From Okeania sp. (GTDB taxonomy: Bacteria; Cyanobacteriota; Cyanobacteriia; Cyanobacteriales; Microcoleaceae): DNA of 32,000 nucleotides. The notes under the pieces were generated by a model. The model ran no database searches. It was not told the DNA's origin and saw only the letters and a list, made by a program, of their open reading frames with translations. A program made the position numbers and the translations under genes. Each line of letters opens with the position of its first letter. Within the stretch, counting starts at the first letter, position 1. The DNA lies in the NCBI RefSeq assembly GCF_035285525.1, contig NZ_JAYKGW010000104.1, positions 1 through 32,000 of the forward strand, read 5' to 3'. Shown here piece after piece: positions 1,776 to 30,739 of the stretch.

Positions 1776-1806
1776 AAACCTACTCCCTATTTTCTAATAA
1801 TTTTAG

Positions 1807-3183: not shown

Positions 3184-3213
3184 TTCTAATAATACTCTTA
3201 GTCTGTTAATAAT

Positions 3214-3477: not shown

Positions 3478-3649
3478 AAACTATATAACGAGTATTCAAC
3501 CGGATTTTATATTACGCATAACCATAATACCTAGTATGGGACAAATGGCATTTGCCCCATACATACATACAATTGTTGTATAGCTTCACATTTTGCCTAA
3601 TTCGTGTTAATCTCATAATTTGTAAAGTTCCTACACGCTTGATCTTAAC

Positions 3650-3780
3650 AGGACTTACCCATGAGTAACACAATTTCGACGTTTGAGACTACTATCCTTA
3701 CGGACTGCGACCCATTCATGTCGCGGAGCGAAACCCTGACGCTCGTATCGGACAGAAACACGTTGTTCTGCGTAAGTCCT
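3650..3780. mobile_element. MITE-like element (131 bp), same TIR family
   Basis: AGGACTTACCCA at 3650-3661 and TGCGTAAGTCCT at 3769-3780. Confidence 0.7.
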
Positions 3781-3842
3781 AATTAATTCTGACAGTTCAA
3801 TACCTCTATAGCTAGGTAATTTTAGAGCATCTCAACCGTTGG

Positions 3843-4339: not shown

Positions 4340-4368
4340 CATTAAGTGCTTCTGCCATTATTAGAAAC

Positions 4369-4456
4369 TGGACTTACGCAGTACCGCTATAGCGAGTATG
4401 GGGGAATGCCATTCACCCCTACAGATAGTCTATAATTTCGTTTTTTCGTAAGTCTT
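4369..4456. mobile_element. MITE-like element, degenerate right TIR
   Basis: TGGACTTACGCA at 4369-4380 and TTCGTAAGTCTT at 4445-4456, about 30 nt upstream of the SET start codon. Confidence 0.6.
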
Positions 4457-4505
4457 GAGAAACCTACAATTTTCTATAAAAATAGATAATTTTCTATAAA
4501 ATTAC

Positions 4506-4669
4506 AGGACTTACACGGGAGGCACTATATATATATATAGAGTCCTGGTGCGTTGTGCGTTGTACGGTTTACATATCGCGTAGCGTTTCAGCGCTTGAGC
4601 CGACATATAAAGCGGAGCTTTGCGGAACGCAAAACACACCCTACCAGTAGCGTTCATGGCTTTAGTCCT
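4506..4669. mobile_element. MITE-like element (164 bp), related to 10636-10795
   Basis: Begins AGGACTTACACGGGAGGCACTATATATATATATAG and ends GGCTTTAGTCCT. It shares the CACTATATAT and GGTGCGTT blocks with 10636-10795. Confidence 0.65.
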
Positions 4670-4898
4670 AAATTATTTGAAATTTAGCCGTTGCTGATTA
4701 TGGGTATGATTTTGCCCCCCGATTTCCCCAAAGTTGAGGGGCAAAACTATGAAATTCTAGTAAAATTGGGGATGCGGGGGGGGCTTGATCAAAACCAAAC
4801 AATCGCCCATTCATACTTCAATTCACCAACGACGAAATTTATATACTCCAAAGCTCAGGGTTTGCAGACCAAACTCTTACAGTTCAATATTGTAATAA

Positions 4899-5237
4899 TT
4901 ACGCTTCTATTTGAGCTGCATCATACTCATCCAGCAAATAAATACTCTGGTCGAAACCAGTTTTAGTAATAGTTTCCTTTACTGTTTCTTGAACGCCTAC
5001 CATATAAATGTCAACCCCTGTTCCCATTTTTTGTTTAGCAAAAATCAATACCCGTAGACCTGCACTTGCCATAAATTCTAGTTCTTGCATCATCAAAACC
5101 AGTCTTTTTGGACTTGTAGCTGCTGCTTCCTCTACTTTGGTTTTAAAATCAGGAGCTGTAGCTCCATCTAATTCTCCAGATAATGTTATTTTCGCAATAT
5201 TATCTTTGATTGTTTCTAGGGTTGCTGTAAAAGCCAT
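4899..5237 (-). CDS. STAS-domain anti-sigma-factor antagonist (SpoIIAA/RsbV-like); Slr1859-like by position
   Basis: The track start (GTG 5285) is unlikely. ATG 5237 (MAFTATLETIKD) has AAGGA 8 nt upstream. The protein shows a STAS pattern with the phospho-acceptor context EFMASAGLRVL. Confidence 0.8.
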   Translation of the reverse strand: MAFTATLETIKDNIAKITLSGELDGATAPDFKTKVEEAAATSPKRLVLMMQELEFMASAGLRVLIFAKQKMGTGVDIYMVGVQETVKETITKTGFDQSIYLLDEYDAAQIEA

Positions 5238-5411
5238 AATTTTTCCTTTGTTGTTGATCTTTTTATGATTTTGTAGAAATTTCACTGGGGAGTGAAATTT
5301 TTGTCCTCTTTATAATATAATATCAGTTTTTAGGTTAAAAAAATTAGCATCAGAAAGCTCACACAAGAGTAGAAAAATTAAGAGACTATTCTTCCAACTA
5401 ATTCCTCTATC

Positions 5412-5514
5412 AGGACTTACACGGGAGGAACCCGGTTTCTACAGTAAATCATTGTTTTTGACAATAAATATCCACCCTCGTACCCGGTTTCTGGGTTCGC
5501 GTGGCTTTAGTCCT
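5412..5514 (+). mobile_element. MITE-like element, about 102-bp subfamily with internal AACCCGGTTTCT / AGAAACCGGGTT boxes
   Basis: AGGACTTACACGGGAGGAACCCGGTTTCTACAGTAAATCATTGTTTTT...CCCGGTTTCTGGGTTCGCGTGGCTTTAGTCCT. The first 48 nt match the inverted copy at 7787-7879. Confidence 0.8.
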
Positions 5515-5542
5515 GTCTATAACTCCCATTCATCCTGACTCT

Positions 5543-5605
5543 GTAGGGACGTTGCATAAGGGCATCCCTACGAATCTGTACGGACGTTGCATGAAACGTC
5601 CCTAC
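5543..5605. repeat. Two GTAGGGACGTT...-type hairpin repeats abutting the glgX stop
   Basis: GTAGGGACGTTGCATAAGGGCATCCCTAC (5543-5571) and GTACGGACGTTGCATGAAACGTCCCTAC (5578-5605). No U-tract follows on the minus strand. Confidence 0.65.
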
Positions 5606-5608
5606 TCC

Positions 5609-7729
5609 CTATTTACTTACCAGAATAACTACAGAGCGATCGCCCAGGAATAACCCATGTTGATTTTCCAAAACAGGTTCGCTTCCTGGTTCCCAAGCAT
5701 CTTCTGGGGAAGCACAAGCAGTATTAGCAAAAACGTGCCACTTTTTCCCATCTGATAAACCAGGAATATCAAACCAGAGAGTATCCCAGTGCATATTCAT
5801 TGCCACATAAATATCATTATCTACCTCTGTTGCTTCTCTTGCGTGTTTACCACAAAGCATAAAAGCCAAAGTCCGAGAATGAGAAGACCAGTCAGCATTC
5901 CAAACCTGAGTACCATGCCAAGTAATGTCTAAATTTCCACTACCCGCATAATCTTGATTGCGGAAATGGTAACGATTTCTCAATACTGGGTGTGCTTTCC
6001 GAAATGCAATACAATTCTTCACAAACTTGAATAAGTTGGCATTTGTTTCCAGAAATTCCCAATTTAGCCAATTTAATTCGGAGTCGTGGCAATAAGTATT
6101 ATTATTACCATTTTTACTCCGCCCTATTTCATCACCCATCAATAACATCGGAACACCTTGACTCACCATCATAATTGCGATCGCATTTCGCATCTGACGA
6201 CTACGCAAAGCATTTATTCCTGGGTCATCAGTCCAACCTTCTGCCCCACAGTTCCAACTTTCGTTATCATTAGCACCATCATTATTATTTTCACCATTAG
6301 CTTCATTATGCTTACCATTGTAAGACACCATATCTGCTAAAGTGAAACCGTCATGGGCGGTAATAAAATTAATAGATGTTGCTGGAGCGCGACCTTGCCC
6401 AGCATAGAGGTCTGGAGAACCTTGTATCCGTTGTGCCATTTCCCCTACAGCACAATCACCCTTAATAAACCTGCGAATAGAATCCCGATATTTACCATTC
6501 CATTCTGCCCAACGTCCAAAAGCGGGAAAAGAACCCACCTGATATAAACCACCAGCATCCCAAGCTTCTGCAATCAACTTACAGTTAGCTAAAATTGGGT
6601 CAAAAGCCAAAGTTTCTAATAGTGGAGGATTTGCTAATGGTGCGCCCCAAGGATCCCGTCCCAGAATTGAAGCCAAATCAAACCGGAAACCATCAATATG
6701 ATATTCACTCGCCCAATAACGCAAACAATCTAATACCACATTTCTGACAATTGGGTTATTACAATTAAGAGTATTACCACAACCACTAAAATTAAAATAA
6801 TAACCTTCGGGTGTTAACATATAATATGTCTTATTGTCAATACCCCTAAAAGAAATTGTCGGACCGTTTTCATTTCCTTCCGCCGTGTGGTTAAACACAA
6901 CATCTAAAATGACTTCAATGCCATTCTTATGCAGTTCCTTAACTAGAGCTTTTAACTCATCTATCTGCATCCCCAACTTACCTGTAGCAGCATATCCAGC
7001 TTTAGGAGCAAAAAAACCGACCGTACTATAACCCCAATAATTGTAGAGCATCTCCCCTGTAATCGGGCTAGGACGAGAATTTTCAAACTCATCAAATTCA
7101 TAAACAGGCATTAACTCAATAGCATTAATACCCAATTCTTTGAGGTAAGGAATTTTTTCCCGAATGCCAGCAAATGTTCCTGGATGTTTGACACCAGAAG
7201 AAGGATGAGCAGTAAAACTGCGAACGTGCATTTCATAAATAATCTGATCTTGTGGGGGAATCTCTAGAGGGCGGTCATTTTCCCAGTCAAAATCATCAAA
7301 AGCAATTCTCGCCCGATGTTGATAAATATCATCCCAGTTTGGTGTTTTTCCCCAAACATCGCGACCCCCAATAATCTTAGCATAAGGATCCATGAGAATT
7401 TTACTTTGGTCGAACCATTGACCGTCATGGAAATTATTTGGTCCATCCATGCGATAACCATATTCAATATTTTCAACATCGAGGTTGAATACAATCATAG
7501 AATAGACATTTCCTATCCGAAATTCTTCAGGAAAAGGAATTTCTGCCATTGGTTGGGGAGCGCCTTTTTCAAATAAGACTAACGTACAGGATGTAGCGTG
7601 GGAAGAAAATATGGAAAAATTTACTCCCCCTGACATCATCGTTGCACCAAATGGAAAAGGGTTTCCCCTACGGAATTTAAAGTCACCGTGACTATGGGTA
7701 GGATGAATATCAATACGGTCTTGTAACAT
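5609..7729 (-). CDS. glgX: Glycogen debranching enzyme GlgX (isoamylase, GH13)
   Basis: 706 aa with ATG at 7729. The GH13 conserved regions are present: DVVFNHT, GFRFDLAS, IAEAWD and FITAHDGF. There is an N-terminal CBM48-like segment (GVNFSIFS). Confidence 0.92.
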   Translation of the reverse strand: MLQDRIDIHPTHSHGDFKFRRGNPFPFGATMMSGGVNFSIFSSHATSCTLVLFEKGAPQPMAEIPFPEEFRIGNVYSMIVFNLDVENIEYGYRMDGPNNFHDGQWFDQSKILMDPYAKIIGGRDVWGKTPNWDDIYQHRARIAFDDFDWENDRPLEIPPQDQIIYEMHVRSFTAHPSSGVKHPGTFAGIREKIPYLKELGINAIELMPVYEFDEFENSRPSPITGEMLYNYWGYSTVGFFAPKAGYAATGKLGMQIDELKALVKELHKNGIEVILDVVFNHTAEGNENGPTISFRGIDNKTYYMLTPEGYYFNFSGCGNTLNCNNPIVRNVVLDCLRYWASEYHIDGFRFDLASILGRDPWGAPLANPPLLETLAFDPILANCKLIAEAWDAGGLYQVGSFPAFGRWAEWNGKYRDSIRRFIKGDCAVGEMAQRIQGSPDLYAGQGRAPATSINFITAHDGFTLADMVSYNGKHNEANGENNNDGANDNESWNCGAEGWTDDPGINALRSRQMRNAIAIMMVSQGVPMLLMGDEIGRSKNGNNNTYCHDSELNWLNWEFLETNANLFKFVKNCIAFRKAHPVLRNRYHFRNQDYAGSGNLDITWHGTQVWNADWSSHSRTLAFMLCGKHAREATEVDNDIYVAMNMHWDTLWFDIPGLSDGKKWHVFANTACASPEDAWEPGSEPVLENQHGLFLGDRSVVILVSK

Positions 7730-7786
7730 TTATTTTTGTTAGTATACGGTTGAGTACGGGCACGACTTTAATGAACAGGACTAACG

Positions 7787-7879
7787 CAGACAAACCTATC
7801 AACCCGGTTTTTTGTAGATGTTTATGTGTGGAAAAACAATGATTTACTGTAGAAACCGGGTTCCTCCCGTGTAAGTCCT
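7787..7879 (-). mobile_element. MITE-like element, about 102-bp subfamily, inverted relative to 5412-5514
   Basis: AGGACTAACGCA at 7787-7798 and CGTGTAAGTCCT at 7868-7879. The reverse complement starts with the same 48 nt as 5412-5459. Confidence 0.8.
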
Positions 7880-7900
7880 GCATTATTAATTATCCATTAT

Positions 7901-8242
7901 TTATTCCTTGAGTTTTTCGATTCCTTCATCAACTTTTTCCACAGTTATGAAAAAGTCTAGAAACCCAGTCACAGACATAGTATCTTGAAGCTCTTCAGAA
8001 AGTCCTACCAATACAACTTTTCCTTCTTGAGTTTCTGTTTGTCGATATAATGATAGTAACATTCGTAACCCAGCACTAGACATATATGGCACATTGGTCA
8101 TATCCATCAGGATTTTGCTACCGGGTTCCGCTAGAGGTACAACTTGTTTTTGAACATTAGGTGCTGTATTAGCATCAATGTCTCCAATTAGTTCTACTAC
8201 TTTAATTTCTTCTTCTGTTCTAATATTAATTTCGATTGCCAT
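7901..8242 (-). CDS. STAS-domain anti-sigma-factor antagonist (SpoIIAA/RsbV-like); Slr1856-like by position
   Basis: The track start (GTG 8308) translates a dispersed repeat (MLGFVPQPNL), so I prefer ATG 8242 (MAIEINIRTEEE). The protein shows a STAS pattern with PYMSSAGLRMLL. Confidence 0.8.
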   Translation of the reverse strand: MAIEINIRTEEEIKVVELIGDIDANTAPNVQKQVVPLAEPGSKILMDMTNVPYMSSAGLRMLLSLYRQTETQEGKVVLVGLSEELQDTMSVTGFLDFFITVEKVDEGIEKLKE

Positions 8243-8277
8243 TTGATTTAGTGTAATAATACTTGGATGTTTTAGAT

Positions 8278-8409
8278 GTAGGTTAGGTTGAGGCACGAAA
8301 CCCAACACAGTATATGTTAATTCAATAAGGTACCTGAATGATTACATTTTTTCAACGTAGGTTGGGTTGAGGTACGAAACCCAACACAGTATATGTTAAT
8401 TCAATAGGG
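8278..8409. repeat. Tandem duplication (period 79 nt) of a hairpin repeat GTTGGGTT-N9-AACCCAAC plus a 30-nt tail
   Basis: GTAGGTTAGGTTGAGGCACGAAACCCAACACAGTATATGTTAATTCAATAAGG (8278-8330) and GTAGGTTGGGTTGAGGTACGAAACCCAACACAGTATATGTTAATTCAATAGGG (8357-8409). Confidence 0.8.
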
Positions 8410-8488
8410 TGTCTTAATGAAATGTAACACACCACCTACCCATATATTATCGGTGCATTCCGCACTCTACTTAACTAATGTACTTAAA

Positions 8489-8654
8489 ACCTCTCCCCTA
8501 ACCCCTCTCCTGCAAGGAGAGGGGAAAAATTCCTCCCCCTTCTCTTGCCGACAAGGGGGTTGGGGGGTTAGGTTTCACCTTCTGGTTAAGGAGAGGGGAA
8601 AAATTCCTCCCCCTTCTCTTGCAGGGAAGGGGGTTGGGGGGTTAGGTTTCACCC
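8489..8654. repeat. G/C-rich nested-hairpin small dispersed repeat, 1.7 copies
   Basis: ACCTCTCCCCTAACCCCTCTCCTGCAAGGAGAGGGGAAAAATTCCTCCCCCTTCTCTTGC...GGGGGTTGGGGGGTTAGGTTTCACC, followed by a second partial copy from 8588. CCCCTCTCC-TGCA-AGGAGAGGGG forms a hairpin. Confidence 0.8.
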
Positions 8655-8669
8655 ATACTGTTTCTGGTT

Positions 8670-10490
8670 TTAGTTAGGTACAATATTGACCTTAACTGTC
8701 ACCCGCTCCTTAGTCTCAGGCAACTTCACAAAAAGTTTATCCGCATCAAAATCACTGTAGGGTTTACCATCAATTTCTACAGAACCAATTTTTATGCTAC
8801 CAGGAGGCAAAATATCCGGCGACACTCGCAAAATATTATCAGGGAAACCACCAGGAATAGGTTTAAAGTAGAAATCCATTGGTTGCTTAGTCACCAACAA
8901 ATTAGTATAAACCGCAGCCAAATAACATAACTCTGTCGAGTGATAACCACTCATAGAGTGGGAACCTTTACCCCGTTCATTACCACTTGCCAAGAAAGGA
9001 ATACCATTAGCAAGAACATTGAAATAAACCCCACCATCTTCTGTATCTAAGAACCAAGCGTTATAAAAAGCAGCAGCTTCTCGTGCTAACCGATGATATT
9101 CTTCTTCTTTGAGTGTTCCTGCTAGAATATAATAAGCTAGAATAGACTGTTCTTGCTGCCACCAAGCTTTGCGATCATGCCAAACAAAACGGTGAGTCTT
9201 TTCACCTTCTCCTAATGCTCTTTCCACCACATCATACCAACCACCTCGTTGTTGGTCACTACCCACTGCTGGCATCACTTCAGCAATTTTCTTCGCTAAA
9301 TCAACATAAGTATCCTTAGATTTGAGACTATTCATCCGCATCAAGTTCCAAGCAATTTTCATGTTGTGACCAACTACTGCTCGGTTTTGCTGCCATCCCC
9401 AGGTCTGGTCTGGACTCCAGTCTTCAAAGAATTTTTCGTTAACAAATGGGCAGTTTTCATAATCAGGGAAACGCTTTTCAATAGTATCAAAAGTGTATTC
9501 GAGCATATCTGCATATTCTGGTTTTTCGGTTGCTAACCAAAGATTAATTAGATATGCTGGTGCATGGTCTCCCACTGAGTTCCAGTTTTTAGTTCCTTTA
9601 TTCCGACCTAATGACTCACTTAAAGGATCCAGAGTAATAGGATCGAGGTGGGAATAATAACCACCCCGTTCAGTTTTATCTAAGAAAAAGTCATTAAACA
9701 ACTTAATTGTTTTCTCGGTATCATCTATGATCCGAGGATCCCCATTGAGGCGATAAGTTTGCAAAGGACCTGCGAGAGCATAAATTTGTTCGTAAGCGGG
9801 AATAGCATCATAGTCATCGCCAAATTCTGAAGTAAAAATTTTCTGTTCCCGTTCCCCTTGCACATCAATACCGTGATACCAATAAACGATACCTTCGTCT
9901 AAGTCTACAAACCTCATGTGGTCTCGTAGATAGTCAGTACCTTTTTCTGCTGCTTCTAAGAAAACTTCTTCCCCAGTCATCATGTATGCTGTTGCCATTC
10001 CATAAACCATCCGGGAGATAGTGTCAGTTTCTTGACGGAAGTTTACCTGTGATTTTGCTCCAGAAAGACTTAAGGTGGTGCGGTAGTTACGGTAGTCGAT
10101 TTCTTCGTTGCCAAATTGAGCTTTGACATAAAAATTAGCTAGAGACCGAACTTGATCTACCCACCAGTTTTGTTTTTCAAATTTGTAACTATCTGCTTTA
10201 GCACCGACAAATACTATTTGTTTGGCTTCAAATATGGGACTATCTGGGTAAAATACCCCATAAGTGAATAGATAACGACCAGGTTGCAACATGGAGCGCA
10301 TAGAACCTGTAGCATCTGGATATGCTTCGTCTAAGTTTTGGATAATTTTAGCATAACTGGTAGGAGTTAACTTAGCTTGAAATTCTCTACCATCGGTTGT
10401 TTTGATGCCAAAAATATCTGTGGTTGAGTCGAATTTAGTAACGTACCCTGCGATTAGATCGGAGAAGGTAAACTCTACTGGGATAGTCAT
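8670..10490 (-). CDS. AGE-superfamily (N-acylglucosamine 2-epimerase-like, (alpha/alpha)6 barrel) sugar isomerase/epimerase or glycosidase-like enzyme with N- and C-terminal extra domains
   Basis: 606 aa with ATG at 10490. AGE-like motifs are GGYYSHLD, NSVGDHAPAYLINL, VVGHNMKIAWNLMR, GGWYDVV and HDRKAWWQQEQSILAY. About 130 extra aa lie at the N-terminus, and the C-terminal tail (about 80 aa) looks beta-rich. Confidence 0.6.
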   Translation of the reverse strand: MTIPVEFTFSDLIAGYVTKFDSTTDIFGIKTTDGREFQAKLTPTSYAKIIQNLDEAYPDATGSMRSMLQPGRYLFTYGVFYPDSPIFEAKQIVFVGAKADSYKFEKQNWWVDQVRSLANFYVKAQFGNEEIDYRNYRTTLSLSGAKSQVNFRQETDTISRMVYGMATAYMMTGEEVFLEAAEKGTDYLRDHMRFVDLDEGIVYWYHGIDVQGEREQKIFTSEFGDDYDAIPAYEQIYALAGPLQTYRLNGDPRIIDDTEKTIKLFNDFFLDKTERGGYYSHLDPITLDPLSESLGRNKGTKNWNSVGDHAPAYLINLWLATEKPEYADMLEYTFDTIEKRFPDYENCPFVNEKFFEDWSPDQTWGWQQNRAVVGHNMKIAWNLMRMNSLKSKDTYVDLAKKIAEVMPAVGSDQQRGGWYDVVERALGEGEKTHRFVWHDRKAWWQQEQSILAYYILAGTLKEEEYHRLAREAAAFYNAWFLDTEDGGVYFNVLANGIPFLASGNERGKGSHSMSGYHSTELCYLAAVYTNLLVTKQPMDFYFKPIPGGFPDNILRVSPDILPPGSIKIGSVEIDGKPYSDFDADKLFVKLPETKERVTVKVNIVPN

Positions 10491-10897: not shown

Positions 10898-11497
10898 TTA
10901 TCCATTAGACTCGATAGCTTCGACAAATTTTTCCATAAATTCATCTGTGACACCAGGGTGCTTTGCAGTGATTAAGTTACCATCAATAACTAAATCTGCT
11001 GTTTGGTCTCCATCAAAGATGACATCTGCTCCAGCATTTTCTACATCACAAATGATATTATGAGCGCAAGTTACTTTTTTATCTTTAATCATTTCATTGT
11101 CTGCACAAAATAGCCATAAACTATGACAAATTGCACCTAATTTTACGTTCTCTGTATTAACAGCATTGCGCAAAAATACTACTGCTGGTGCTTGATTTTT
11201 TTCACCTTTCTTGGGGTTTACCTGATAACGCAATCTATCGGTTGCATAAGCACCAATACAGATGATACCTTTATAGTCTTCAGGTTTAACGTCATTTACT
11301 TCTGTAGTGACTGTAACTTGTTCTTCAACAACGTTATTTTCTGGGTTAGAACCAAAGTGTAATTCTGGTTGTCCCCACAAGTGAGTGATGTATTCTACTT
11401 CGTAGCCTTTTGTCGGAAAAAATTCATTAAATTTACGATATTCTGTCGAATCGAAATGATCTTCAATTAAAACGCCAATTTTACCTTTTGTTGCCAT
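10898..11497 (-). CDS. DJ-1/PfpI-family protein (class I glutamine-amidotransferase-like fold)
   Basis: 199 aa with ATG at 11497. It starts KIGVLIEDHFDSTEY and carries a nucleophile-elbow Cys-His (GAICHSLW) and LITAKHPG. Confidence 0.7.
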   Translation of the reverse strand: MATKGKIGVLIEDHFDSTEYRKFNEFFPTKGYEVEYITHLWGQPELHFGSNPENNVVEEQVTVTTEVNDVKPEDYKGIICIGAYATDRLRYQVNPKKGEKNQAPAVVFLRNAVNTENVKLGAICHSLWLFCADNEMIKDKKVTCAHNIICDVENAGADVIFDGDQTADLVIDGNLITAKHPGVTDEFMEKFVEAIESNG

Positions 11498-12031: not shown

Positions 12032-12595
12032 TTATGTAGTAATCAATTTCAATAATGATTCATTAGCAAATACATCCCGGTAGAACGTTAATTGTTCAGT
12101 TTTCAAGTAGCAACCACCTCGGTGACCGCGACGTACCCAAGTCACATTACCTTTAGCAATGGTTTCGTTAGTTTCTAAGTCTACACTCTTCCATTCAAAA
12201 TATGTATGCTCTCCATAGAACATCACGATTGGCCAGCACATAATAACACCTGGTTGAGAAATCAACGCCCACCAATGCTGTTCCCGTTCTTTTTGTTGTT
12301 CTAAACCCCGGTAAGGTCCATCTTGGCAAAAATAAACTAAATCTTCGCGATATTCATCAGTTAAAATATCACCACGTCCTTGTCTCAAAGCTTCGCAATG
12401 ACTTGGCCACCACTCTTTATTTTCTTTTTCTATTTGTTCTAATGTGTAGTCAGGACCAATTTCTGGTAATGTTGCTTCTTTCATAGCACAGATTTTTTCT
12501 GCTAGAGCAATCATCTCTTTTGCAACATCAGCACTTGCTGGAACAGCTCTAGAGTAATCTGCTGTTAAATCTTTGTAGTAACTTGTACGCGCCAT
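12032..12595 (-). CDS. Hypothetical protein, possibly NTF2/SnoaL-like fold
   Basis: 187-aa ORF in an AT-rich genome with ATG at 12595 and AGGAG 5 nt upstream. It is Trp/Cys-rich. The C-terminal beta-like segment NVTWVRRGHRGGCYLKTEQLTFYRDVF resembles SnoaL-type proteins. The fold call is weak. Confidence 0.55.
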   Translation of the reverse strand: MARTSYYKDLTADYSRAVPASADVAKEMIALAEKICAMKEATLPEIGPDYTLEQIEKENKEWWPSHCEALRQGRGDILTDEYREDLVYFCQDGPYRGLEQQKEREQHWWALISQPGVIMCWPIVMFYGEHTYFEWKSVDLETNETIAKGNVTWVRRGHRGGCYLKTEQLTFYRDVFANESLLKLITT

Positions 12596-12748: not shown

Positions 12749-13687
12749 TCAATCAGTCAACTGATTAGTCAACATTAGTTCTGCTACATCATTTTGCAAT
12801 TGATTAGCAGCTCCAATATCCATAATCAACTGTGCTACTGTTGAGCTTCGTTGACCTGCCAATGTCATTTTACCATCATAGACAAATGTGTAAGCAGTTC
12901 TTTCTGGAAATGGTCTTATTTCTTTGACGTACTTACTGTGTTCGCTTATCAACTCTTGATATTCTTGAGATATAAAAAGTTGTTCTAGGTCTAAGCGATT
13001 CCAGAAAGCTATTTCCATAGCAGCTTGATAGTTGAGTTCTGGTGCTTCAGAGTGGGATACTCCACCTGCATCCGGCCTAGTGTTATCTACTTCTTCAAAT
13101 AGATGTAATCGTAGTTTCAATACTTGAGGCATTTTGGCTAGAGCTGGTGCAAACCTTTCTTTATAGTATACCCGAAACTCTTCCACACTTACTCCATCCG
13201 CTTTCCTAATCATGCAGTGGTACTTTTCTAATCCTTGAGAACCATTAGGAGAACCATTGGCAATTCCATCTTTGAAAGTGATAGAGTTACCAGGTGTGGT
13301 ATTATAACCTATGGCTTTGCTAAAGATGTTATGCTCATCATCCATCAAAATAGTTGCCGCTTTGAACCATGTTTCCCGGTCTTCTACTGTTTTGAAGGTT
13401 AATTCAGCAATACCATCAAAGTTTTCTTCTGGAGTAGAAGCATCTACTAAATCTCCAATACTAGGCCATACTCCCCCATCATTATGGGCAACATGAAATT
13501 GCCAATATTGGTACTGACCTGGTAGACGGGCACAAACTGGTCCGTGAACATCTCTCCAATAGTCATCAAATAGTTCCAGGGTTATTCCTTTTCTTTTCCA
13601 CAGGAGAACATAAAAAGCCACTTGTGCTTCCTGGTCGCGACTTGAATAGTCGGCAATTTCTCCTTTTTTGATTGGAGTTGATACCAT
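12749..13687 (-). CDS. Tandem EthD-like (dimeric alpha/beta-barrel) domain protein
   Basis: 312 aa. Two EthD-type openings are visible: VAFYVLLWKRKGITLELFDDYWRDVHGPV and KYHCMIRKADGVSVEEFRVYYKERFAPAL. Confidence 0.55.
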   Translation of the reverse strand: MVSTPIKKGEIADYSSRDQEAQVAFYVLLWKRKGITLELFDDYWRDVHGPVCARLPGQYQYWQFHVAHNDGGVWPSIGDLVDASTPEENFDGIAELTFKTVEDRETWFKAATILMDDEHNIFSKAIGYNTTPGNSITFKDGIANGSPNGSQGLEKYHCMIRKADGVSVEEFRVYYKERFAPALAKMPQVLKLRLHLFEEVDNTRPDAGGVSHSEAPELNYQAAMEIAFWNRLDLEQLFISQEYQELISEHSKYVKEIRPFPERTAYTFVYDGKMTLAGQRSSTVAQLIMDIGAANQLQNDVAELMLTNQLTD

Positions 13688-13861: not shown

Positions 13862-14227
13862 TTACTTTGGTGGGAATAATTCGTTTAATTCCTCTTTTAA
13901 TTCTCCGAGAGCGCCGAAGCAACCTGCTGCTTTATTAAATCCGGCATAAACACAGGTGAATACTAGCAGTTCCTCTATTTCTTCCAAAGTAGCTCCTTGA
14001 GACATTGCCATTTTCACATGAGCGCCAAATGGGTTTCCTGGACCAACATGATCTTGATTAACCACATCTATTGCTACTGTGATTAGAGCTTTGGTTTTTT
14101 GGTCTATTATGGGTAAACCCCATGCTTCTCCTGCTACACGAGTACAAAAGTCCCCAAATTTAGGATTTATGCTATTTAAGCCTTCTTGAAGTGCTTGGTC
14201 GTCCAATACCGCGTTTTTGTATGCCAT
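13862..14227 (-). CDS. Carboxymuconolactone decarboxylase (CMD/AhpD-like) family protein
   Basis: 121 aa. The CMD pattern reads FGDFCTRVAGEAWGLPIIDQKTKALITVAIDV...HVKMAMSQGATLEEIEELLVFTCVYAGFNKA. Confidence 0.8.
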   Translation of the reverse strand: MAYKNAVLDDQALQEGLNSINPKFGDFCTRVAGEAWGLPIIDQKTKALITVAIDVVNQDHVGPGNPFGAHVKMAMSQGATLEEIEELLVFTCVYAGFNKAAGCFGALGELKEELNELFPPK

Positions 14228-14780: not shown

Positions 14781-14881
14781 AAATGAGTTGAAAAAACTGT
14801 ATGGATTTGGTTTCCACATCCCATTATGAAGCTTGGTTTGGAGACCAAACGTTAGATAAAATATTACAATTTAAAATAGGC

Positions 14882-14984
14882 ATAACTTACGCAAGTGAAC
14901 CCAGAAACCGGGTTGTTTTTCCTCAATATTTATTGTTAAAAACAACGATTTATTCTAAAAACCAGGTTGCTTTGCCTAAGTCCT
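14882..14984 (-). mobile_element. About 102-bp-subfamily MITE
   Basis: ATAACTTACGCAAGTGAACCCAGAAACCGGGTT...AAAACAACGATTTAT...AAACCAGGTTGCTTTGCCTAAGTCCT. Confidence 0.75.
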
Positions 14985-15166
14985 GATAGGATTACTAACG
15001 GATTGGAACGGCGCTCGGAATATAATGATTCGAGCTTTGCAACTTATCTACTATCACTTTAATCGGCGATCCATACAGATTCAAAGTTGACTACTTTTGG
15101 TGAACTTTGAGTAGGTTAAATGTTCCACTTAATTGTATGAATTTTACGGAATAGAAATTATTAATT

Positions 15167-18100
15167 ATGGCTGACGTTGCACTAAGAGACGCAAAAATTA
15201 TTGGTCAAGAAAACTTTGAATTATGGAGTCAAGGTTTTGATCCAAATGGTTATCTAGACGTATTGCCTCACCCAGATATAGTAGTTCCTTTTAAGAACCC
15301 TATTGAACAGTGGCAAAACAATCCAGAAGGAAGCGGTGGAGATTACTTTTCGAGCTGGGGTCCAGATGAGATATTAGATGTACAACTCTCAATGGAAGAG
15401 ATAGATGAATTAGAGATATCAGGTTTAGGGATTCTGAAGTCAGGAGATGGATTAGTTGATTGGTTGCCTCGTCTTAACCCTGATGACGGACTACCTGTTT
15501 TCGATGAAAATGGAGAACTTCTACCTAGCTTCACCCCTTATGAACTACTTAGAGGCTATCAGGGTACTTTTCCTGATGGTACAATTTCTGAGCCAATGAT
15601 TCCAGGGCCAACTTTAGTGGGTGAACCAGGGGACAAGTTACAACTTACTCTGACAAATAATTTAACAAAGGTAGAGGAAGCAGGAAATACTACAGCAAAT
15701 GTATCATCTAACCTACATACCCACGGTTATCATACATCTCCTCTCGGTCATGGTGATAATGTTCTACATTTACTAGATTCTGGAGAAACCTTTGAATATG
15801 ATATTCAGATTCCTATAGACCAAACTGCTGGTCTCAGTTGGTATCACCCTCATTTTCATGGATACACCAATACTCAACTAGCAGCAGGGTTAGTAGGTAT
15901 GCTGCAAGTTAACCCTAGATTTGATGAACCAGACCTAGATAAATGGAATCCAGCTTCGGAAAATTTCTATTTGATGAGCCTTAATACTTTTGGTCTTCAG
16001 CAAGTAGATAGACCAGGTTCACCAGACGACCCCCTCAACCAAAATCCTGATATTTCTTTGCCTGCGGGTACACCTATACAAATTGAAGGATTGACAGATA
16101 ATGGTTTGCCGATTTATGAACTATCGGATGCTGTATTTATAGGTTATAATGCTAAACCACTTCTCTATGACCCCGAACAACCTTTGGGTAGAAATGAAGA
16201 TGGTACAAATAATCCAAATTTATTTGAATATGGCGGTGGTGTTTTGCAGGCACCAGCAGAAAACGTTATTCATACTATTAATGGTCAATATAACCCGACA
16301 CTTGAGTTAAAAACAGGTGAGTTACAAACATTTTCACTTTTGAATGCAGATGTTAATTCTCACCATATTCTTCAGTTATATAAAGAAGAAATCGGTCCTG
16401 ATGGGGAAATAATTCTCGAACTCCAAGATATGACTTATGTCGGTCTTGATGGTGACTCTTTCCCTGGTCGCGCGACAGAAGAAATTCGTAGAACTTTGGA
16501 AGACTCACCAATTTTCCAACCAGGACAACGGATCACTATAGATCATTCTTTTACAGAACCTGGTACATATTATTTGTTATCTAATGGTACGCCAGAAATT
16601 GTTGGTGAAGATAGTCCAGAGTTAATTCAGACAATGACCAATAAATTGGCAGAAGGTCAGGAAGCTCAGGGATTTGATGACGGTCACTATACTTGGGGAC
16701 CCCAGGTTTTGATGACTTTTGATGTGACGGGTGCAGAAACTGCTGCGGCTCCGATTCCAGAAGCTTATGATAGCCTCACAGAAACAGTTAATGCAGTGAT
16801 AGATAGAATAAATGCAGCAGAGAATGGTGTTGGTGTTGACCGAGAACGTACATATATTTGGAGTGCAAATATTGGTGGAGCGATCGCTGAAGGTAATAAT
16901 CCTGATGACTTAGAAGTAAAGACATTCGAGGGAACTTACAAAATTAATGGTGGGTATTTTGCTGGAGAGAATGAGACTCCACTAGCGATGCCAATGTTAG
17001 GTACAGCAGAAATATGGAATGTATTTAACATCTCTGGTTTCAACGAAAACAACTTTCCTGAAGGGGTTCCAGATATTCCCCTTTTAGAATGGCATCCATT
17101 CCACATTCACCAAAATCCTTTTACAGTTTTAGATATCAACGGTCAGCGACTGGCAGATTTAGATAATACCTATCTACCATATATAGAGGGTGATACTATT
17201 GCTCTACCTCCGAGTCATCAGGAGGGTACAGTCACAGAAACTAACCCTTATGGTGTAGCAGAAGTTGCTGGTAACGCTTCCCTAGTCAGAATGTATATGG
17301 AGTTCAATGACTATGACGGTAGTTTTGTTAACCATTGTCATATTCTGTTCCACGAAGATGCTGGTATGATGGCAGTTGTGCGGGTGATTCTGAATACAGA
17401 TGATACTTGGTTAGGGTTAAGCAATGAAGAGGGAGATGCTAATGGTACAAGTATAGAACTACTCCGGGGTAGCGGTGTCACAAGACCTAGTTTGAATTTG
17501 AGACCTTTTGGTTCCGATTTTACAGGTGGGGTAGATATTGATATTAATGATGTCAACTTTTTGCTACCGTTTGCAGGCAATAATGTTAGCGATAATACCA
17601 CAGATGTTGTGGCGATGGAAATTGAAGGGGAGCATACAGTTAGAGTATTTGATGGTAGGTCATTATTTAATCTGCAAGCACAGGGGATAACAGATGTTGA
17701 TGGTAATGATACTAGCTTACAAATTGTTGAATTTAATCCTTTCCAAGGAGTAAATGGTATTGCAGGGGAAAAAGCTTCTGTTGCTACTGGGGATATTACT
17801 GGCAATGGTTTTGCTGACATCGTTACGGGTATAGTTACAGAAAATGGGGTATTGATTGAGATTTATGATGGTGAAAATTTTGGGCTGCTTACCAGTATAG
17901 TTGTTGATGGATTAATCTCTGATATAGATGGTTTAGAGAATAATCTCAATGTAACTGTGGGAGATGCTGCTGGAGATAACTTTGAGGATATCTATATTGC
18001 TAATCATGGTAAGTTAACGATTTTGAGCGGTATTGATATTGAGAACAAGATTGCAGCAGGTGAAGACATTCAGGCAAGTCATGTAGCAGCGTTAGATGAG

Positions 18101-19222
18101 CCTATTAGTCCCTATGGAGAAAATTACACCGGGGAGATTGAGATTACCTCTGGTTATGTACTCCAGCGACCTGAACCAGAAGATGATAATCCTCCTACTG
18201 AAGATTTTTATCTCCGTGAAGAGGCTTTTGGTACTACTGTTCAAGGTAATAATGCTAATATTACTACATTGGCTGTTGATACGGAACAGTTGGCAGAAGG
18301 TGATGAGCAAGTCAAGATTTGGACTTACCTTGGAGGAGGACACCACGGACATGGAGGAGAGGATGCCGCTAGCGATAGCACACATACTAATCATAACCTA
18401 GAAGCCAGTCAAGTAGAGAGTAATGATGAAGGGACACAAGCAGAGTCTAATCTGCCAGTTCGTCTAGATGCTGCATTTACCCCTGAAAGTGCAATTACCA
18501 ATATATCTGGTACTTTTGCTGACGTTCCTGGAAATCAACGAGGGGAACCTGTTTTATTTGTTCAAAATGCAGAAGGAACTCGTGAGATATTTCAAATCCG
18601 GGGTGGAAATCTCTTGGGTGAAAATACAATCGGTACCACAGGAGATGATAGTATTGATGGAGGTAATAATGGGGACAATATCTACGGACTGGAAGGAGAT
18701 GATGTCCTTAATGGTAATTTGGGGAACGATTTATTACACGGTTTTCAAGGTGATGATTCTCTCAATGGTGGTGCAGGAAACGATTCTTTCCGTGGTGGAA
18801 AAGGTGACGATATTCTGACTGGAGGAGAAGGAGCAGATATTCTCAATGGGGAACAAGGAGATGATACCCTGACAGGTGGAGCGGGTACGGATTTATTTGT
18901 TTTCGATACCGATCTGGTATTCGATACAAGTACATTAGGTGTTGATTCTATAACTGACTTTAATGAAGCAGAAGATTTAATCGAACTCGATGCTGTGACT
19001 TTCACCGCTTTTGATACAACAGAGAATATGCAAGCTAGTTTTGCTGTTGTCTCCAGTGAAAGTGATGCTGCTACATCAGAAGCATTTATTGTTTACGATG
19101 GTACAAGTGGTAATTTGTACTATAACGTTGATGGTACTGTTCCTGGTTTCGGTAGTGGCGGTCAGTTTGCAACATTAGAAGGTGCGCCAGCGTTAGCCGC
19201 TGAGAATTTGATTTTGGGTTAG
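15167..19222 (+). CDS. Leaderless three-domain multicopper oxidase (laccase-like) fused to FG-GAP/VCBS-like repeats, a His-rich linker and a C-terminal RTX (hemolysin-type Ca-binding) repeat/T1SS-type tail
   Basis: 1351 aa. All four Cu motifs are present: HTH (15716-15724), WYHPHFHG (from 15839), HPFHIH (from 17093) and HCHILFHEDAGM (from 17333). FG-GAP-like segments are ATGDITGNGFADIVTG and VGDAAGDNFEDIYIAN. A GGGHHGHGG stretch lies at 18332-18358. About nine GGxGxDxxx nonapeptides lie at about 18632-18895. The C-terminus reads DLIELD...LYYNVDG...GGQFATLEG. There is no N-terminal Sec or Tat signal. Confidence 0.85.
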   Translation: MADVALRDAKIIGQENFELWSQGFDPNGYLDVLPHPDIVVPFKNPIEQWQNNPEGSGGDYFSSWGPDEILDVQLSMEEIDELEISGLGILKSGDGLVDWLPRLNPDDGLPVFDENGELLPSFTPYELLRGYQGTFPDGTISEPMIPGPTLVGEPGDKLQLTLTNNLTKVEEAGNTTANVSSNLHTHGYHTSPLGHGDNVLHLLDSGETFEYDIQIPIDQTAGLSWYHPHFHGYTNTQLAAGLVGMLQVNPRFDEPDLDKWNPASENFYLMSLNTFGLQQVDRPGSPDDPLNQNPDISLPAGTPIQIEGLTDNGLPIYELSDAVFIGYNAKPLLYDPEQPLGRNEDGTNNPNLFEYGGGVLQAPAENVIHTINGQYNPTLELKTGELQTFSLLNADVNSHHILQLYKEEIGPDGEIILELQDMTYVGLDGDSFPGRATEEIRRTLEDSPIFQPGQRITIDHSFTEPGTYYLLSNGTPEIVGEDSPELIQTMTNKLAEGQEAQGFDDGHYTWGPQVLMTFDVTGAETAAAPIPEAYDSLTETVNAVIDRINAAENGVGVDRERTYIWSANIGGAIAEGNNPDDLEVKTFEGTYKINGGYFAGENETPLAMPMLGTAEIWNVFNISGFNENNFPEGVPDIPLLEWHPFHIHQNPFTVLDINGQRLADLDNTYLPYIEGDTIALPPSHQEGTVTETNPYGVAEVAGNASLVRMYMEFNDYDGSFVNHCHILFHEDAGMMAVVRVILNTDDTWLGLSNEEGDANGTSIELLRGSGVTRPSLNLRPFGSDFTGGVDIDINDVNFLLPFAGNNVSDNTTDVVAMEIEGEHTVRVFDGRSLFNLQAQGITDVDGNDTSLQIVEFNPFQGVNGIAGEKASVATGDITGNGFADIVTGIVTENGVLIEIYDGENFGLLTSIVVDGLISDIDGLENNLNVTVGDAAGDNFEDIYIANHGKLTILSGIDIENKIAAGEDIQASHVAALDEPISPYGENYTGEIEITSGYVLQRPEPEDDNPPTEDFYLREEAFGTTVQGNNANITTLAVDTEQLAEGDEQVKIWTYLGGGHHGHGGEDAASDSTHTNHNLEASQVESNDEGTQAESNLPVRLDAAFTPESAITNISGTFADVPGNQRGEPVLFVQNAEGTREIFQIRGGNLLGENTIGTTGDDSIDGGNNGDNIYGLEGDDVLNGNLGNDLLHGFQGDDSLNGGAGNDSFRGGKGDDILTGGEGADILNGEQGDDTLTGGAGTDLFVFDTDLVFDTSTLGVDSITDFNEAEDLIELDAVTFTAFDTTENMQASFAVVSSESDAATSEAFIVYDGTSGNLYYNVDGTVPGFGSGGQFATLEGAPALAAENLILG

Positions 19223-19224
19223 AC

Positions 19225-19326
19225 AGGACTTACGCAGATGAACCCAGAAACCCGGTACGAGGGTAGATTATTACTGCTCAAAACAACGATTTATCCTAGA
19301 AACCGGGTTTCGCGTGGGTAAGTCCT
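19225..19326 (-). mobile_element. About 102-bp-subfamily MITE starting 3 nt after the MCO-RTX stop codon
   Basis: AGGACTTACGCAGATGAACCCAGAAACCCGGT...AGAAACCGGGTTTCGCGTGGGTAAGTCCT. Confidence 0.8.
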
Positions 19327-19402: not shown

Positions 19403-19696
19403 TTGAAATACATTATTTTTTCAGTTGCTTTATTAATGTTTTTATTTGCTGTTGCGCCTCCCGCAGCAGCATCTTTTTGTCGTAACTACAACGGTAATAA
19501 AATTTGTATTTTTAGCATTAAACGTAGTGCTAAAAACTATTGGGAATATCGAGCGGAAGTAAGTATTAATGGTGTGAAAAAGCCATTAGAAATTTATAAT
19601 TGTCGTACTCGACAAAAAATTCAAAAAAATGGCAATATTATTAAATTTACACCTAATGGCGCAGGTCAATTAATTTGTAATGTTCTGAATAAATAG
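19403..19696 (+). CDS. Small secreted Cys4 protein (hypothetical)
   Basis: 97-aa ORF with a TTG start. It has a signal-peptide-like N-terminus (MKYIIFSVALLMFLFAVAPPAAAS), and the mature part is Lys/Asn-rich with four Cys. No family recognised. Confidence 0.5.
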   Translation: MKYIIFSVALLMFLFAVAPPAAASFCRNYNGNKICIFSIKRSAKNYWEYRAEVSINGVKKPLEIYNCRTRQKIQKNGNIIKFTPNGAGQLICNVLNK

Positions 19697-29380: not shown

Positions 29381-30739
29381 ATGGCATTTTTGCGACAACT
29401 GTCTACAAACAAGTTATCTAACAAAGAACTCATAAAGAAGTATCTATCTGAGACAGAAGAGATGATACTAGGACGAGACCCCACTTGTCAAATACTGTTA
29501 GATACAGAAACCTATAAAATGGTTTCTCGACGCCATGCAATAATTCGTCTCAATACTGAGCAAAGTACAACCAATGGGATCAAATGGGAAATTTGCGATC
29601 TCAATAGTGCCAACGGTACTTATATTAATGGACAAAAAGTACAAGGCTCCCAAATTTTAAGGGTAGGCGATCTGATTCGCTTGGGCAATAATGGACCAGA
29701 ATTTATCTTTGATAATCAATCGACCGAACAATCAACCATATCAGTATTACCATCAGCAAACCTTAATTCACCCCCTATCAATCCTGTCGCCAGTGCTGAA
29801 GTTGAAGAGACTGATGTGATAACTTTAACGCAATTATTTCCGATTGCTTCTACAGGAAAACAATTGGTAAAAAAAGCTTATCTTTATCCAGGTATTATCA
29901 CTGTAATTTTTGTGGTTTTAATGTTTTTAACAGTGGGTAAAACAGGGGCTTTTAATTTACTTTTAGCAACTTACATTGCTAGTGGAGCTTATTATTTTAT
30001 TTATCAACTTTGTGGTAAACAAAAACCTTGGTGGATATTATTTGGAGCGGCTTTAACAACTGTTTTAATTTTATTAAGTCCAATTCTCACAGTTTTTCTA
30101 GAAGTATTTCGGACAATACTTCCTGGGAATGTATCAGTAAATCCTCAGCAAGTAGGGTTTATAGATTTTCTAATTAGAATGTTCTTCGGAGCCGGATTAA
30201 TGGAAGAATTACTGAAAGCATTACCTGTGTTTTTAGCATTATTAATAGGTCGTAGTTTACATTCTCCCTGGCGACAAAAAATAGGAGTTTGGGAACCTCT
30301 AGATGGAATTTTATTAGGAACAGCTTCCGCAATAGGATTTACTTTATTAGAAACTCTAGGGCAGTATGTTCCGAGTATTGTGGATAGTGCCAGTTTACAA
30401 TTAGGAGTAGGTGCTGGTGAATTGGTAGGATTACAATTATTAATTCCCAGAATTTTAGGGTCAGTTGCTGGACATATAGCTTATAGTGGTTATTTTGGTT
30501 ATTTTATAGGATTAAGTGTTTTAAGACGACGCAATAGTTGGTTAATTTTAGGAGTTGGGTATTTTACTGCTTCTATTCTTCATGCTTTATGGAATGCTTC
30601 TGGAGTTTTAAATATATTTCTTTTAGCATTTGTAGGAGTAGTTTCTTATGCTTTTTTAGGAGCAGCAATTTTAAAAGCAAGAGTTTTGTCTCCAACAAGG
30701 AATGAAAATTTTGCGACTCAAGCTATAATTAATAAGTGA
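29381..30739 (+). CDS. FHA-domain protein fused to a PrsW-family intramembrane metalloprotease
   Basis: 452 aa. The FHA domain spans aa about 28-110 (ILGRD...SRRHAII...NSANGTYINGQKV...GDLIRLG...EFIF). The polytopic C-terminal half carries the PrsW motifs MEELLKALP (EExxK, from 30203), GHIAYSG and LHALWNAS (HxxxN). Confidence 0.8.
   Translation: MAFLRQLSTNKLSNKELIKKYLSETEEMILGRDPTCQILLDTETYKMVSRRHAIIRLNTEQSTTNGIKWEICDLNSANGTYINGQKVQGSQILRVGDLIRLGNNGPEFIFDNQSTEQSTISVLPSANLNSPPINPVASAEVEETDVITLTQLFPIASTGKQLVKKAYLYPGIITVIFVVLMFLTVGKTGAFNLLLATYIASGAYYFIYQLCGKQKPWWILFGAALTTVLILLSPILTVFLEVFRTILPGNVSVNPQQVGFIDFLIRMFFGAGLMEELLKALPVFLALLIGRSLHSPWRQKIGVWEPLDGILLGTASAIGFTLLETLGQYVPSIVDSASLQLGVGAGELVGLQLLIPRILGSVAGHIAYSGYFGYFIGLSVLRRRNSWLILGVGYFTASILHALWNASGVLNIFLLAFVGVVSYAFLGAAILKARVLSPTRNENFATQAIINK

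Follow-up and report, generated by a model that had tools for sequence, protein, structure and literature searches.

An Okeania multicopper oxidase joined to a predicted integrin-like propeller and an RTX tail, a probable leaderless passenger of type I secretion

Okeania is a marine filamentous cyanobacterium of the family Microcoleaceae. In the 32,000-nucleotide stretch of Okeania sp. DNA considered here (contig NZ_JAYKGW010000104.1, positions 1 to 32,000 of the forward strand, hereafter the window; GC content of 37%), the plus strand carries one single long open reading frame (ORF) at 15167..19222, which encodes a multicopper oxidase of 145 kDa; this ORF, of 1351 aa, is as reported in a preliminary description made from the letters of the sequence. 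The gene has already been called in the databases under a generic name only, and each of its modules is familiar on its own; by homologue search, the product is 100% identical to the NCBI/UniRef entry P0001, designated as "multicopper oxidase domain-containing protein [Okeania sp.]" with no more specific naming. The layout was established by profile searches against Pfam and NCBIfam together with two AlphaFold2 (AF2) models, computed on overlapping halves of the protein (aa 1-760 and aa 741-1351) from alignments of about 64 relatives each. From the N-terminus onwards, the domain order is a family-specific domain, a three-domain oxidase, an FG-GAP propeller, and an RTX roll followed by a cap, with the following features:

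15167..19222, plus strand: multicopper oxidase gene, single long ORF of 1351 aa
15167..15556, plus strand: N-terminal family-specific domain (aa 1-130), well folded in the AF2 model
15557..17401, plus strand: three-domain multicopper oxidase (aa 131-745), its middle domain bearing long insertions
15716..15724, plus strand: copper motif 1, H184-T-H186 (HTH, aa 184-186), invariant in 65 sequences
15845..15853, plus strand: copper motif 2, H227-P-H229 (HPH, aa 227-229), followed by an invariant H231
17093..17110, plus strand: copper motif 3, H643-P-F-H646-I-H648 (HPFHIH, aa 643-648), invariant in 65 sequences
17333..17368, plus strand: copper motif 4, H723-C724-H725-ILF-H729-EDAG-M734 (HCHILFHEDAGM, aa 723-734), with the T1 Cys and the axial Met
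17402..18631, plus strand: FG-GAP/integrin-alpha-type beta-propeller (aa 746-1155), from AF2 and Foldseek
17789..17821, plus strand: FG-GAP calcium-loop motif GDITGNGFADI (aa 875-885), with G875, D876, G879, D880 and G881 nearly invariant
17960..17992, plus strand: second FG-GAP calcium-loop motif GDAAGDNFEDI (aa 932-942), with D933 and D941 invariant
18332..18442, plus strand: His-rich acidic disordered loop (aa 1056-1092; GGGHHGHGGEDAASDSTHTNHN...), with pLDDT below 50 at aa 1059-1092
18632..18901, plus strand: RTX beta-roll of ten in-register nonapeptides (aa 1156-1245), from HemolysinCabind, AF2 and the sequence
18902..19219, plus strand: serralysin-like C-terminal cap (aa 1246-1351), presumed uncleaved type I secretion signal, from NCBIfam, Foldseek and composition

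Judging from its sequence and its predicted structure, the oxidase part is a catalytically complete, laccase-type enzyme built of three cupredoxin domains. The four canonical copper motifs, in the expected order, and the cupredoxin-1 signature had been pointed out before and they fully hold: in an alignment of 65 sequences, the 12 copper ligands (H184, H186, H227, H229, H643, H646, H648, H723, C724, H725, H729 and M734) are all invariant and so are the signature residues G147, P148, P154, G155 and D156, which makes it very unlikely, at the level of sequence, that this part is a pseudo-enzyme. At the profile level, Cu-oxidase_3 (aa 144-251; 39.1 bits for a cut-off of 21) and Cu-oxidase_2 (aa 601-740; 37.3 bits for a cut-off of 20.4) both score above threshold, while the Pfam model of the middle domain, PF00394, has no match in the protein. 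The AF2 model of aa 1-760 is confident, with a predicted local distance difference test (pLDDT) of 87 and a predicted template modelling score (pTM) of 0.91, and gives the expected three-domain laccase-type fold. Its top PDB matches with Foldseek are the Thermus thermophilus laccase structures 6wcn/2xu9 (E 4e-33, TM(target) 0.78), followed by CotA, Pyrobaculum McoP, Campylobacter McoC, CueO and Aquifex McoA. Whole bacterial three-domain oxidase chains align, with only about 440-500 of the 745 residues covered by the matches, the remainder corresponding to the N-terminal domain (aa 1-130) and the middle-domain insertions. In the model as in the Foldseek alignments, the cupredoxin domains number three, against six for the MnxG-type Mn oxidase. 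As for the N-terminal domain, a motif of the form LxxA(Y/K)IIGxxNF..WSQGF..YL.VLPHPD is conserved from around residue 5 onwards, and sequence searches of aa 1-130 returned no match in either Pfam or PDB.

Compared with the bacterial three-domain laccases (Tth-MCO 2XU9/6WCN, Bacillus CotA, E. coli CueO, Pyrobaculum McoP), the Okeania protein shares the cupredoxin fold, the copper motifs and the Cu-oxidase_3/_2 domains, but its oxidase part is about 300 aa larger, owing to the N-terminal domain and the middle insertions, and exhibits 14-18% identity to solved structures; it also lacks a Sec or Tat leader and a Met-rich lid, and about 600 additional residues are fused to it. These differences bear directly on the view that the enzyme is a copper-detoxifying cuprous oxidase, i.e. 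the equivalent of the periplasmic CueO/CopA, which we hold to be quite improbable. While CueO (55.8 bits) and CopA (28 bits) rank first among the NCBIfam enzyme models and the HCHxxxHEDxGMM motif is CueO-like, equivalence with CueO was rejected since these scores lie far under the equivalog cut-offs (525 and 479, respectively), no Tat leader is present, no Met-rich segment that could form a lid is found (12 Met in 615 aa), and related Okeania genomes own a separate, Met-rich oxidase of 487 aa with a Tat leader. Besides, no copper chaperone or cop/cus domain was found by Pfam among the 21 ORFs scanned in the window. The separate oxidase, as seen in Okeania sp. SIO2C9 (L045 9755-11218, 487 aa), has the same copper motifs and belongs to the same genus; unlike the protein of the window, it starts with a twin-arginine leader (RRRFLSL...), contains an MGMMGRGMMG segment and adjoins a CxxC metal-binding gene. 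At this locus (L045 9755-12332), a membrane-anchored CxxC protein of 232 aa comes after the oxidase, and the two are likely the copper-resistance pair of the genus.

Past the oxidase, the repeats form, in the AF2 model of aa 741-1351 (pLDDT 87, pTM 0.78), a seven-blade propeller of the type found in integrins and in the Psathyrella velutina lectin (PVL), the prediction being confident throughout aa 746-1155 apart from two loops, i.e. the low-confidence stretches at aa 1005-1021 and aa 1059-1092. In Foldseek, the matches are PVL (5mb4/2bwm), integrin alphaV (7y1t/6avr) and integrin alpha5 (9nab), with modest TM scores of 0.28-0.41 to these PVL and integrin heads. FG-GAP/VCBS-like repeats had thus been rightly recognised in the preliminary description, though over aa 780-960 rather than over the full extent of aa 746-1155. 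Regarding the profile, Pfam FG-GAP reaches 17.6 bits in the Okeania protein and falls under its cut-off of 22.1, but the fold is predicted by AF2 and Foldseek and PF01839 and/or PF13517 is recorded for 84/92 relatives. Two calcium loops fit the GDxxGDxFxDI-type pattern. As compared to PVL and the integrin alpha head, the blade topology and the DxDxDG-like calcium loops are the same, whereas the Okeania propeller differs by its sub-cut-off FG-GAP score and by a conserved His-rich disordered loop. The GGGHHGHGG segment of this loop (aa 1056-1064) sits precisely at nt 18332-18358, where it had been placed, but is not the linker it was taken for: since four more confident strands (aa 1098-1155 in the AF2 model) follow it before the RTX roll, the segment is a loop within the propeller. 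Its position is kept in nearly all relatives, with 2-10 His each.

The RTX tail was also correctly located from 18632 onwards, the block comprising ten repeats up to 18901 rather than about nine. The repeats take the form GxxGxDx(L/I/F)x (n=10), with the strict GGxGxD in just four of them, and AF2 places ten short strands with a 9-residue period across the block. HemolysinCabind scores 51.6 bits in Pfam, well above the cut-off of 23. Searching PDB by sequence, the RTX part matches the RTX blocks of CyaA, and over both PDB sequence search and Foldseek the beta-roll matches CyaA, lipase and serralysin; in Foldseek, the C-terminal calcium beta-roll domain of serralysin/alkaline protease resembles the end of the aa 741-1351 model. 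In NCBIfam, the models matched are those of RTX hemolysin, serralysin, an SMc04171-type calcium-repeat protein, CueO and CopA, each match being partial and below threshold. The final 60 aa contain no Lys or Arg and 7 Asp plus Glu, and finish on a hydrophobic end (...AENLILG), resembling serralysin-type tails. In its design, the protein is comparable to the RTX passengers of type I secretion such as serralysin/alkaline protease, the Pseudomonas MIS38 lipase or the AlgE epimerases, which likewise carry an enzyme N-terminal to a beta-roll and cap and are leaderless, acidic and Cys-poor; here, in contrast, the passenger is a four-copper oxidase with a propeller and, in the window, no cognate ABC/MFP genes are adjacent.

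Far from being a one-off, the Okeania oxidase-RTX fusion is, on sequence comparison, one tail variant of a large cyanobacterial family. About 92 homologue clusters combine the N-terminal domain, the oxidase and the propeller, with 31-78% identity, mostly 85-100% coverage and lengths of 1050-1600 aa. They originate from Microcoleaceae, Trichodesmium, Floridanema, Argonema, Aerosakkonema, Phormidium, Calothrix, Mastigocoleus, Anabaena, Nostoc, Mojavia, Gloeothece, Geminocystis, Snowella, Crinalium, Pseudanabaenaceae and marine Synechococcus, and nearly all are leaderless. The C-terminal tails are, as far as domain assignments tell, interchangeable across the family: according to the precomputed Pfam column, the C-terminal module is RTX in 31/92, DUF4114 in 21/92 and PF18885 in 3/92, the rest being unassigned or absent. 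In a neighbour-joining tree of the oxidase core, which has no support values and is indicative, RTX-like tails are spread over several clades including marine Synechococcus. In marine Synechococcus, very large ORFs adjoin the oxidase (L010 13564-17361; L022 6235-9777 and 16201-20640) and cluster by BLAST with the family; they may be paralogues or may just have propeller or repeat domains in common with it.

This conservation also bears on the integrity of the gene. A misassembly breaking at around 17400-18600, which the preliminary description had named as a way to undo the fusion, would make the ORF a chimera of an oxidase gene and an unrelated RTX gene, and the probability we grant it is vanishingly small. 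Nothing was found in favour of a chimera, although MITE-like repeats (miniature inverted-repeat transposable elements) are frequent in this genome and could in principle confuse assemblers. No repeat of any kind lies inside the ORF, the propeller strands run on both sides of the His-rich loop, and the same end-to-end architecture recurs at 51-78% identity and 100% coverage in proteins from independent assemblies (P0003, P0004, P0006-P0009). Besides, the GC content (0.40-0.42) and the GC content at third codon positions (GC3; 0.25-0.27) are uniform over the four segments of the gene and in line with those of the neighbouring genes. The relatives' architecture and the even GC and GC3 thus exclude such a break in practice. 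A recent transfer was rejected as well, given the uniform GC/GC3 matching the neighbours and by the existence of relatives with the same architecture.

Regarding localisation, the protein begins with the hydrophilic stretch MADVALRDAK and has neither a Sec nor a Tat leader, and since an in-frame TAG stands at 15152-15154, 15 nt upstream of the ATG, no hidden N-terminal extension or leader is possible. The closest full-length relatives are leaderless too, with a maximum 12-residue hydropathy of 0.3-1.2. The lack of a leader, noted from the start, is therefore well founded. A double-glycine (C39-type) leader in ..AKIIGQ.. was considered and rejected, because the residue after the Gly is variable, because the segment is folded into the N-terminal domain with a pLDDT of about 92, and because 25-220 extra residues precede it in some relatives. 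Multicopper oxidases usually reach the periplasm folded and copper-loaded via Tat, or else via Sec. A survey from 2011 listed 34 laccase-like genes in cyanobacteria and reported signal peptides predicted for 76% of bacterial laccases (PMC3192119), a proportion that makes this leaderless oxidase family exceptional.

The composition is just as peculiar. With 226 Asp plus Glu against 45 Lys plus Arg, the protein has a pI of 4.05, and its single Cys is the T1 copper ligand C724. Exactly one Cys is present in 72/92 family clusters, and Cys accounts for 0.10% of the residues in the family as compared to 1.44% in the genes that neighbour the oxidase in the window; at the latter average, about 19 Cys would be expected for a protein of this size, and the probability of finding at most one is 7.5e-8. 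RTX S-layer proteins have been described as acidic and cysteine-free, and cyanobacteria as the richest in RTX proteins, 35 being counted in Trichodesmium IMS101 (PMC3034196). The distribution of leaders and tails in the family points in the same direction. Among the leaderless aligned members, 45/59 have tails of 53-370 aa beyond the last propeller strand, whereas Sec- or Tat-like leaders occur in four relatives only, two of them cyanobacterial (P0049, P0071) and two distant and non-cyanobacterial (P0099, P0100), all four of which end 0-9 aa past the propeller and are thus tailless. The chance of all four leader-bearing sequences falling among the 18 short-tailed ones is 0.005, phylogeny not being corrected for. 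By this leader-or-tail pattern, the comparison of sequences supports an extracytoplasmic site of action for the family, in which the tail would be an export device in place of the leader.

Taken together, the protein is probably a laccase-type oxidase with a propeller and an RTX tail that is exported without a leader by the type I route and is active outside the cell. Type I export, Ca-dependent folding outside the cell and extracellular oxidase work are the most likely course of events suggested by the sequence. As we conceive it, the chain would be made without copper and this unfolded, copper-free chain would be exported in one step, C-terminus first, by an unlinked system consisting of an ATP-binding cassette (ABC) transporter, a membrane fusion protein (MFP) and TolC. 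The RTX roll and the calcium loops of the propeller would then fold at the millimolar Ca2+ levels found in seawater, and four coppers would be taken up outside the cell, possibly aided by the conserved His-rich loop. The lectin-like propeller may retain the enzyme on glycans of the envelope or sheath, where it would reduce extracellular O2 to water while oxidising a diffusible reductant.

Several findings weigh against this reading. No ABC transporter, MFP or TolC was found by Pfam among the 21 ORFs scanned in the window, in line with the initial claim that genes for type I secretion and copper handling are missing nearby, and no type I secretion genes lie beside the oxidase in six annotated homologous loci. 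Genes encoding ABC, MFP and TolC components are often unlinked to their substrates in cyanobacteria. In NCBIfam, no curated model of a type I secretion C-terminal target matched the oxidase protein; type I secretion signals have no strict consensus. Fourteen leaderless relatives have almost no tail, and as these members lack both devices, an RTX-dependent route cannot account for the whole family. Furthermore, the conserved neighbours of the oxidase (CMD, EthD and 187-aa genes, listed below) are leaderless and look cytoplasmic, and the gene of the 187-aa protein is far more widespread than the oxidase, with 915 homologues (75-92% identical), some of them in taxa not seen among the oxidase carriers; since the block formed by these genes exists independently of the oxidase, the linkage is suggestive and no proof of a common function. 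From the lack of linked secretion genes, the fourteen relatives with almost no tail and the cytoplasmic look of the neighbours, the protein could be no type I substrate at all, being intracellular or released by lysis, by vesicles or by some leaderless route, with the RTX roll as a structural or adhesive Ca module. This we judge unlikely, as RTX rolls stay unfolded at cytoplasmic Ca2+ (PMC3034196), as the Cys depletion, the acidity and the leader-or-tail pattern point outside the cell, and as Sec-type leaders are present in some relatives. As a separate observation, P0046, P0047, P0048, P0078, P0079, P0084, P0086, P0087 and P0089-P0092 have no leader and a tail of at most 32 aa, yet are cysteine-poor.

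In the genomic context of the oxidase, the following neighbours matter:

13862..14227, minus strand: CMD (AhpD-like) gene, divergent neighbour, its linkage to the oxidase being conserved
12749..13687, minus strand: double EthD-domain gene, conserved neighbour
12032..12595, minus strand: gene of a 187-aa cyanobacterial protein, NTF2-like per one source, highly conserved neighbour
10898..11497, minus strand: DJ-1/PfpI gene, neighbour in 5/14 loci

Further genes lie divergent and upstream, namely a GlcNAc-2-epimerase-like gene, a STAS gene and an isoamylase gene. The context was sampled over 14 loci, the ORFs of which were clustered all-against-all; a scan of a genome collection was dominated by ordinary oxidases of about 400 aa and returned 9 true family loci, and six look-ups of exact proteins were added. 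In 12/14 loci, the CMD/EthD/187-aa group lies within 10 kb of the oxidase, and this across Oscillatoriales, Nostocales, Chroococcales and marine Synechococcus (the block-bearing loci include L001, L004-L006, L009-L011 and L085-L087). The order and orientation of the block are shuffled between Microcoleaceae, Nostocales HT-58-2, Rivularia, Mastigocoleus, Tolypothrix, Calothrix, Gloeothece and marine Synechococcus. For the 187-aa protein, none of Pfam, NCBIfam and PDB gives a match and all homologues are named "hypothetical protein", while NCBIfam gives just weak family-level matches for the conserved neighbours. The preliminary description, which saw nothing relevant near the oxidase, was thus right about secretion and copper genes but overlooked the conserved CMD/EthD/187-aa/DJ-1 block.

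Other genes recur around the oxidase, i.e. an SLH-OprB porin in 8/14 loci, and a CHRD-cupin protein (itself RTX-tailed in one case), a Flavodoxin_2-type quinone reductase and a CDF cation-efflux protein in 4/14 loci each. In the Argonema locus (L003 530-3202), a secreted-looking protein combines tyrosinase, CHRD, Calx-beta and RTX, and secreted-looking CHRD-cupin(-RTX) fusions lie near the oxidase at L001 6065-8665 and L004 5652-7682; no counterpart of these CHRD fusions was found in the Okeania window. Single loci add SnoaL, glyoxalase/VOC and ABM domains, and the Gloeothece locus adds HpaB, an O-methyltransferase and a halogenase.

Because EthD, CMD, NTF2/SnoaL, VOC, ABM, DJ-1, quinone reductase and secreted CHRD-cupin/tyrosinase proteins recur as neighbours elsewhere, our tentative leaning, held at less than even confidence, is that the substrate would be a small phenolic or quinol compound. 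Nearly as probable a substrate would be Fe(II) or Mn(II), a lean that comes from the occurrence of the family in marine Synechococcus, which has no sheath, from the CDF and porin neighbours and from a His- and acid-rich surface, while Cu(I) has little likelihood. With the same export, the enzyme would then be a surface metal oxidase that oxidises Fe(II) or Mn(II) at the envelope, for instance to re-oxidise Fe(II) for uptake or to produce Mn oxides, and that may be likened to the Fet3p/FOX1 ferroxidases and to bacterial Mn-oxidising multicopper oxidases; as a full account, this seems rather doubtful to us. That the family occurs both in sheath-less marine Synechococcus and in filamentous forms would favour a universal substrate, and the CDF and SLH-OprB genes, the very acidic surface and the conserved His-rich loop are in keeping with metal handling. 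Metallo-oxidases (Thermus MCO, McoP, McoC, CueO and McoA) are among the solved structures nearest in fold, but organic-substrate laccases such as CotA and bilirubin oxidase are equally among the fold matches. Likewise, no iron permease, FutA or Mn transporter adjoins the gene among the 21 window ORFs scanned, and the genes that recur most consistently nearby encode small redox or tailoring enzymes rather than metal-handling proteins. A further point for metal oxidation is that Mn-oxidising RTX heme peroxidases of the MopA type are found among the RTX matches (Anderson 2009, as cited in PMC6890756).

By analogy, the MopA type is in fact the nearest functional counterpart of an RTX-exported oxidase. 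These heme peroxidases of Aurantimonas and Erythrobacter, which oxidise Mn(II) (P0104, P0107, P0110 and P0112 among the matches to the RTX part only), are also large secreted RTX oxidative enzymes; they differ by their heme peroxidase domain and their peroxide/superoxide chemistry, which stands in place of a four-electron reduction of O2, and there is no homology to the Okeania protein beyond the RTX block. The exported multicopper oxidase favoured here can be extended to the whole family, which would then be a leaderless oxidase, cysteine-free otherwise than at its copper site, exported unfolded via swappable tails, receiving its Cu via the His loop, and running an extracellular redox cycle with the neighbouring genes and the CHRD-cupin/tyrosinase partners. 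One possibility for this cycle is a quinol/semiquinone chemistry yielding superoxide, or else Fe/Mn cycling at the cell surface. We give this extension little credence; if true, it would provide a molecular candidate for extracellular redox activities of marine cyanobacteria that have no assigned gene.

In the literature, no study of the family or of an RTX-fused multicopper oxidase was found, and a review of RTX proteins mentions no copper enzyme, oxidase or laccase among the passengers (PMC3034196). Extracellular laccase activity has been reported in Arthrospira maxima, with the gene left unassigned (PMC6251991). The secreted FG-GAP protein Npun_R6586 of Nostoc punctiforme (PMC5702739) was also considered, and no link to the oxidase family could be made. 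What is new here is a laccase-type oxidase as a putative RTX/type I passenger combined with an integrin-like propeller, in a leaderless and Cys-poor design that is unusual for a copper oxidase. Should type I export be true, a four-copper enzyme would pass the channel unfolded and have its metal sites assembled extracellularly. The family has a wide distribution among cyanobacteria of ecological importance, including Trichodesmium and relatives, heterocystous forms and marine Synechococcus; if active at the cell surface, it would bear on the handling of Fe, Mn, Cu or phenolics in seawater and sheaths as well as on the maturation of metalloenzymes after type I secretion, and it might offer a naturally secreted laccase scaffold for biotechnology.

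The immediate surroundings of the oxidase gene comprise two MITE-like elements:

14877..14985, plus strand: MITE-like element, upstream copy, in a 940-nt intergenic region
19223..19326, plus strand: MITE-like element, downstream copy of about 105 nt, beginning directly past the stop codon

The downstream copy, which had been spotted just after the stop, does start from about 19223; its terminal inverted repeats lie at 19225-19245 and 19306-19326. The upstream copy had escaped notice. The two flank the oxidase gene in the same orientation and are 84% identical. The 16-nt core occurs 13 times in the window for 0.24 expected, with further matches at 5482, 10816, 12653, 24466, 24767, 24818, 26264, 26282, 28733 and 28817. 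A 61-aa ORF located in the upstream copy (14801-14986) is probably spurious. Scanning for promoters and terminators gave signals at or below the expectation from shuffled sequences.

Directly downstream of the oxidase, a 97-aa ORF (19403-19696, plus strand) combines a Sec-type leader with four Cys; it shares 75% identity with the gene that occupies this position in Microcoleaceae MO_207.B10 (L001 13871-14161), and no counterpart was found in the more distant oxidase loci. Further away, the 452-aa protein encoded at 29381-30739 (plus strand) has an FHA domain at its N-terminus together with an intramembrane protease domain of the PrsW family. On the other side of the oxidase, the region 273-10490 of the window is syntenic with 13563-22018 of L004 in the heterocystous cyanobacterium Nostocales HT-58-2, the genes concerned being DJ-1, the GlcNAc-2-epimerase-like gene (67% identical), STAS, isoamylase (78%), STAS/anti-sigma kinase and a SpoIIE phosphatase module; such a long synteny across cyanobacterial orders is unusual.

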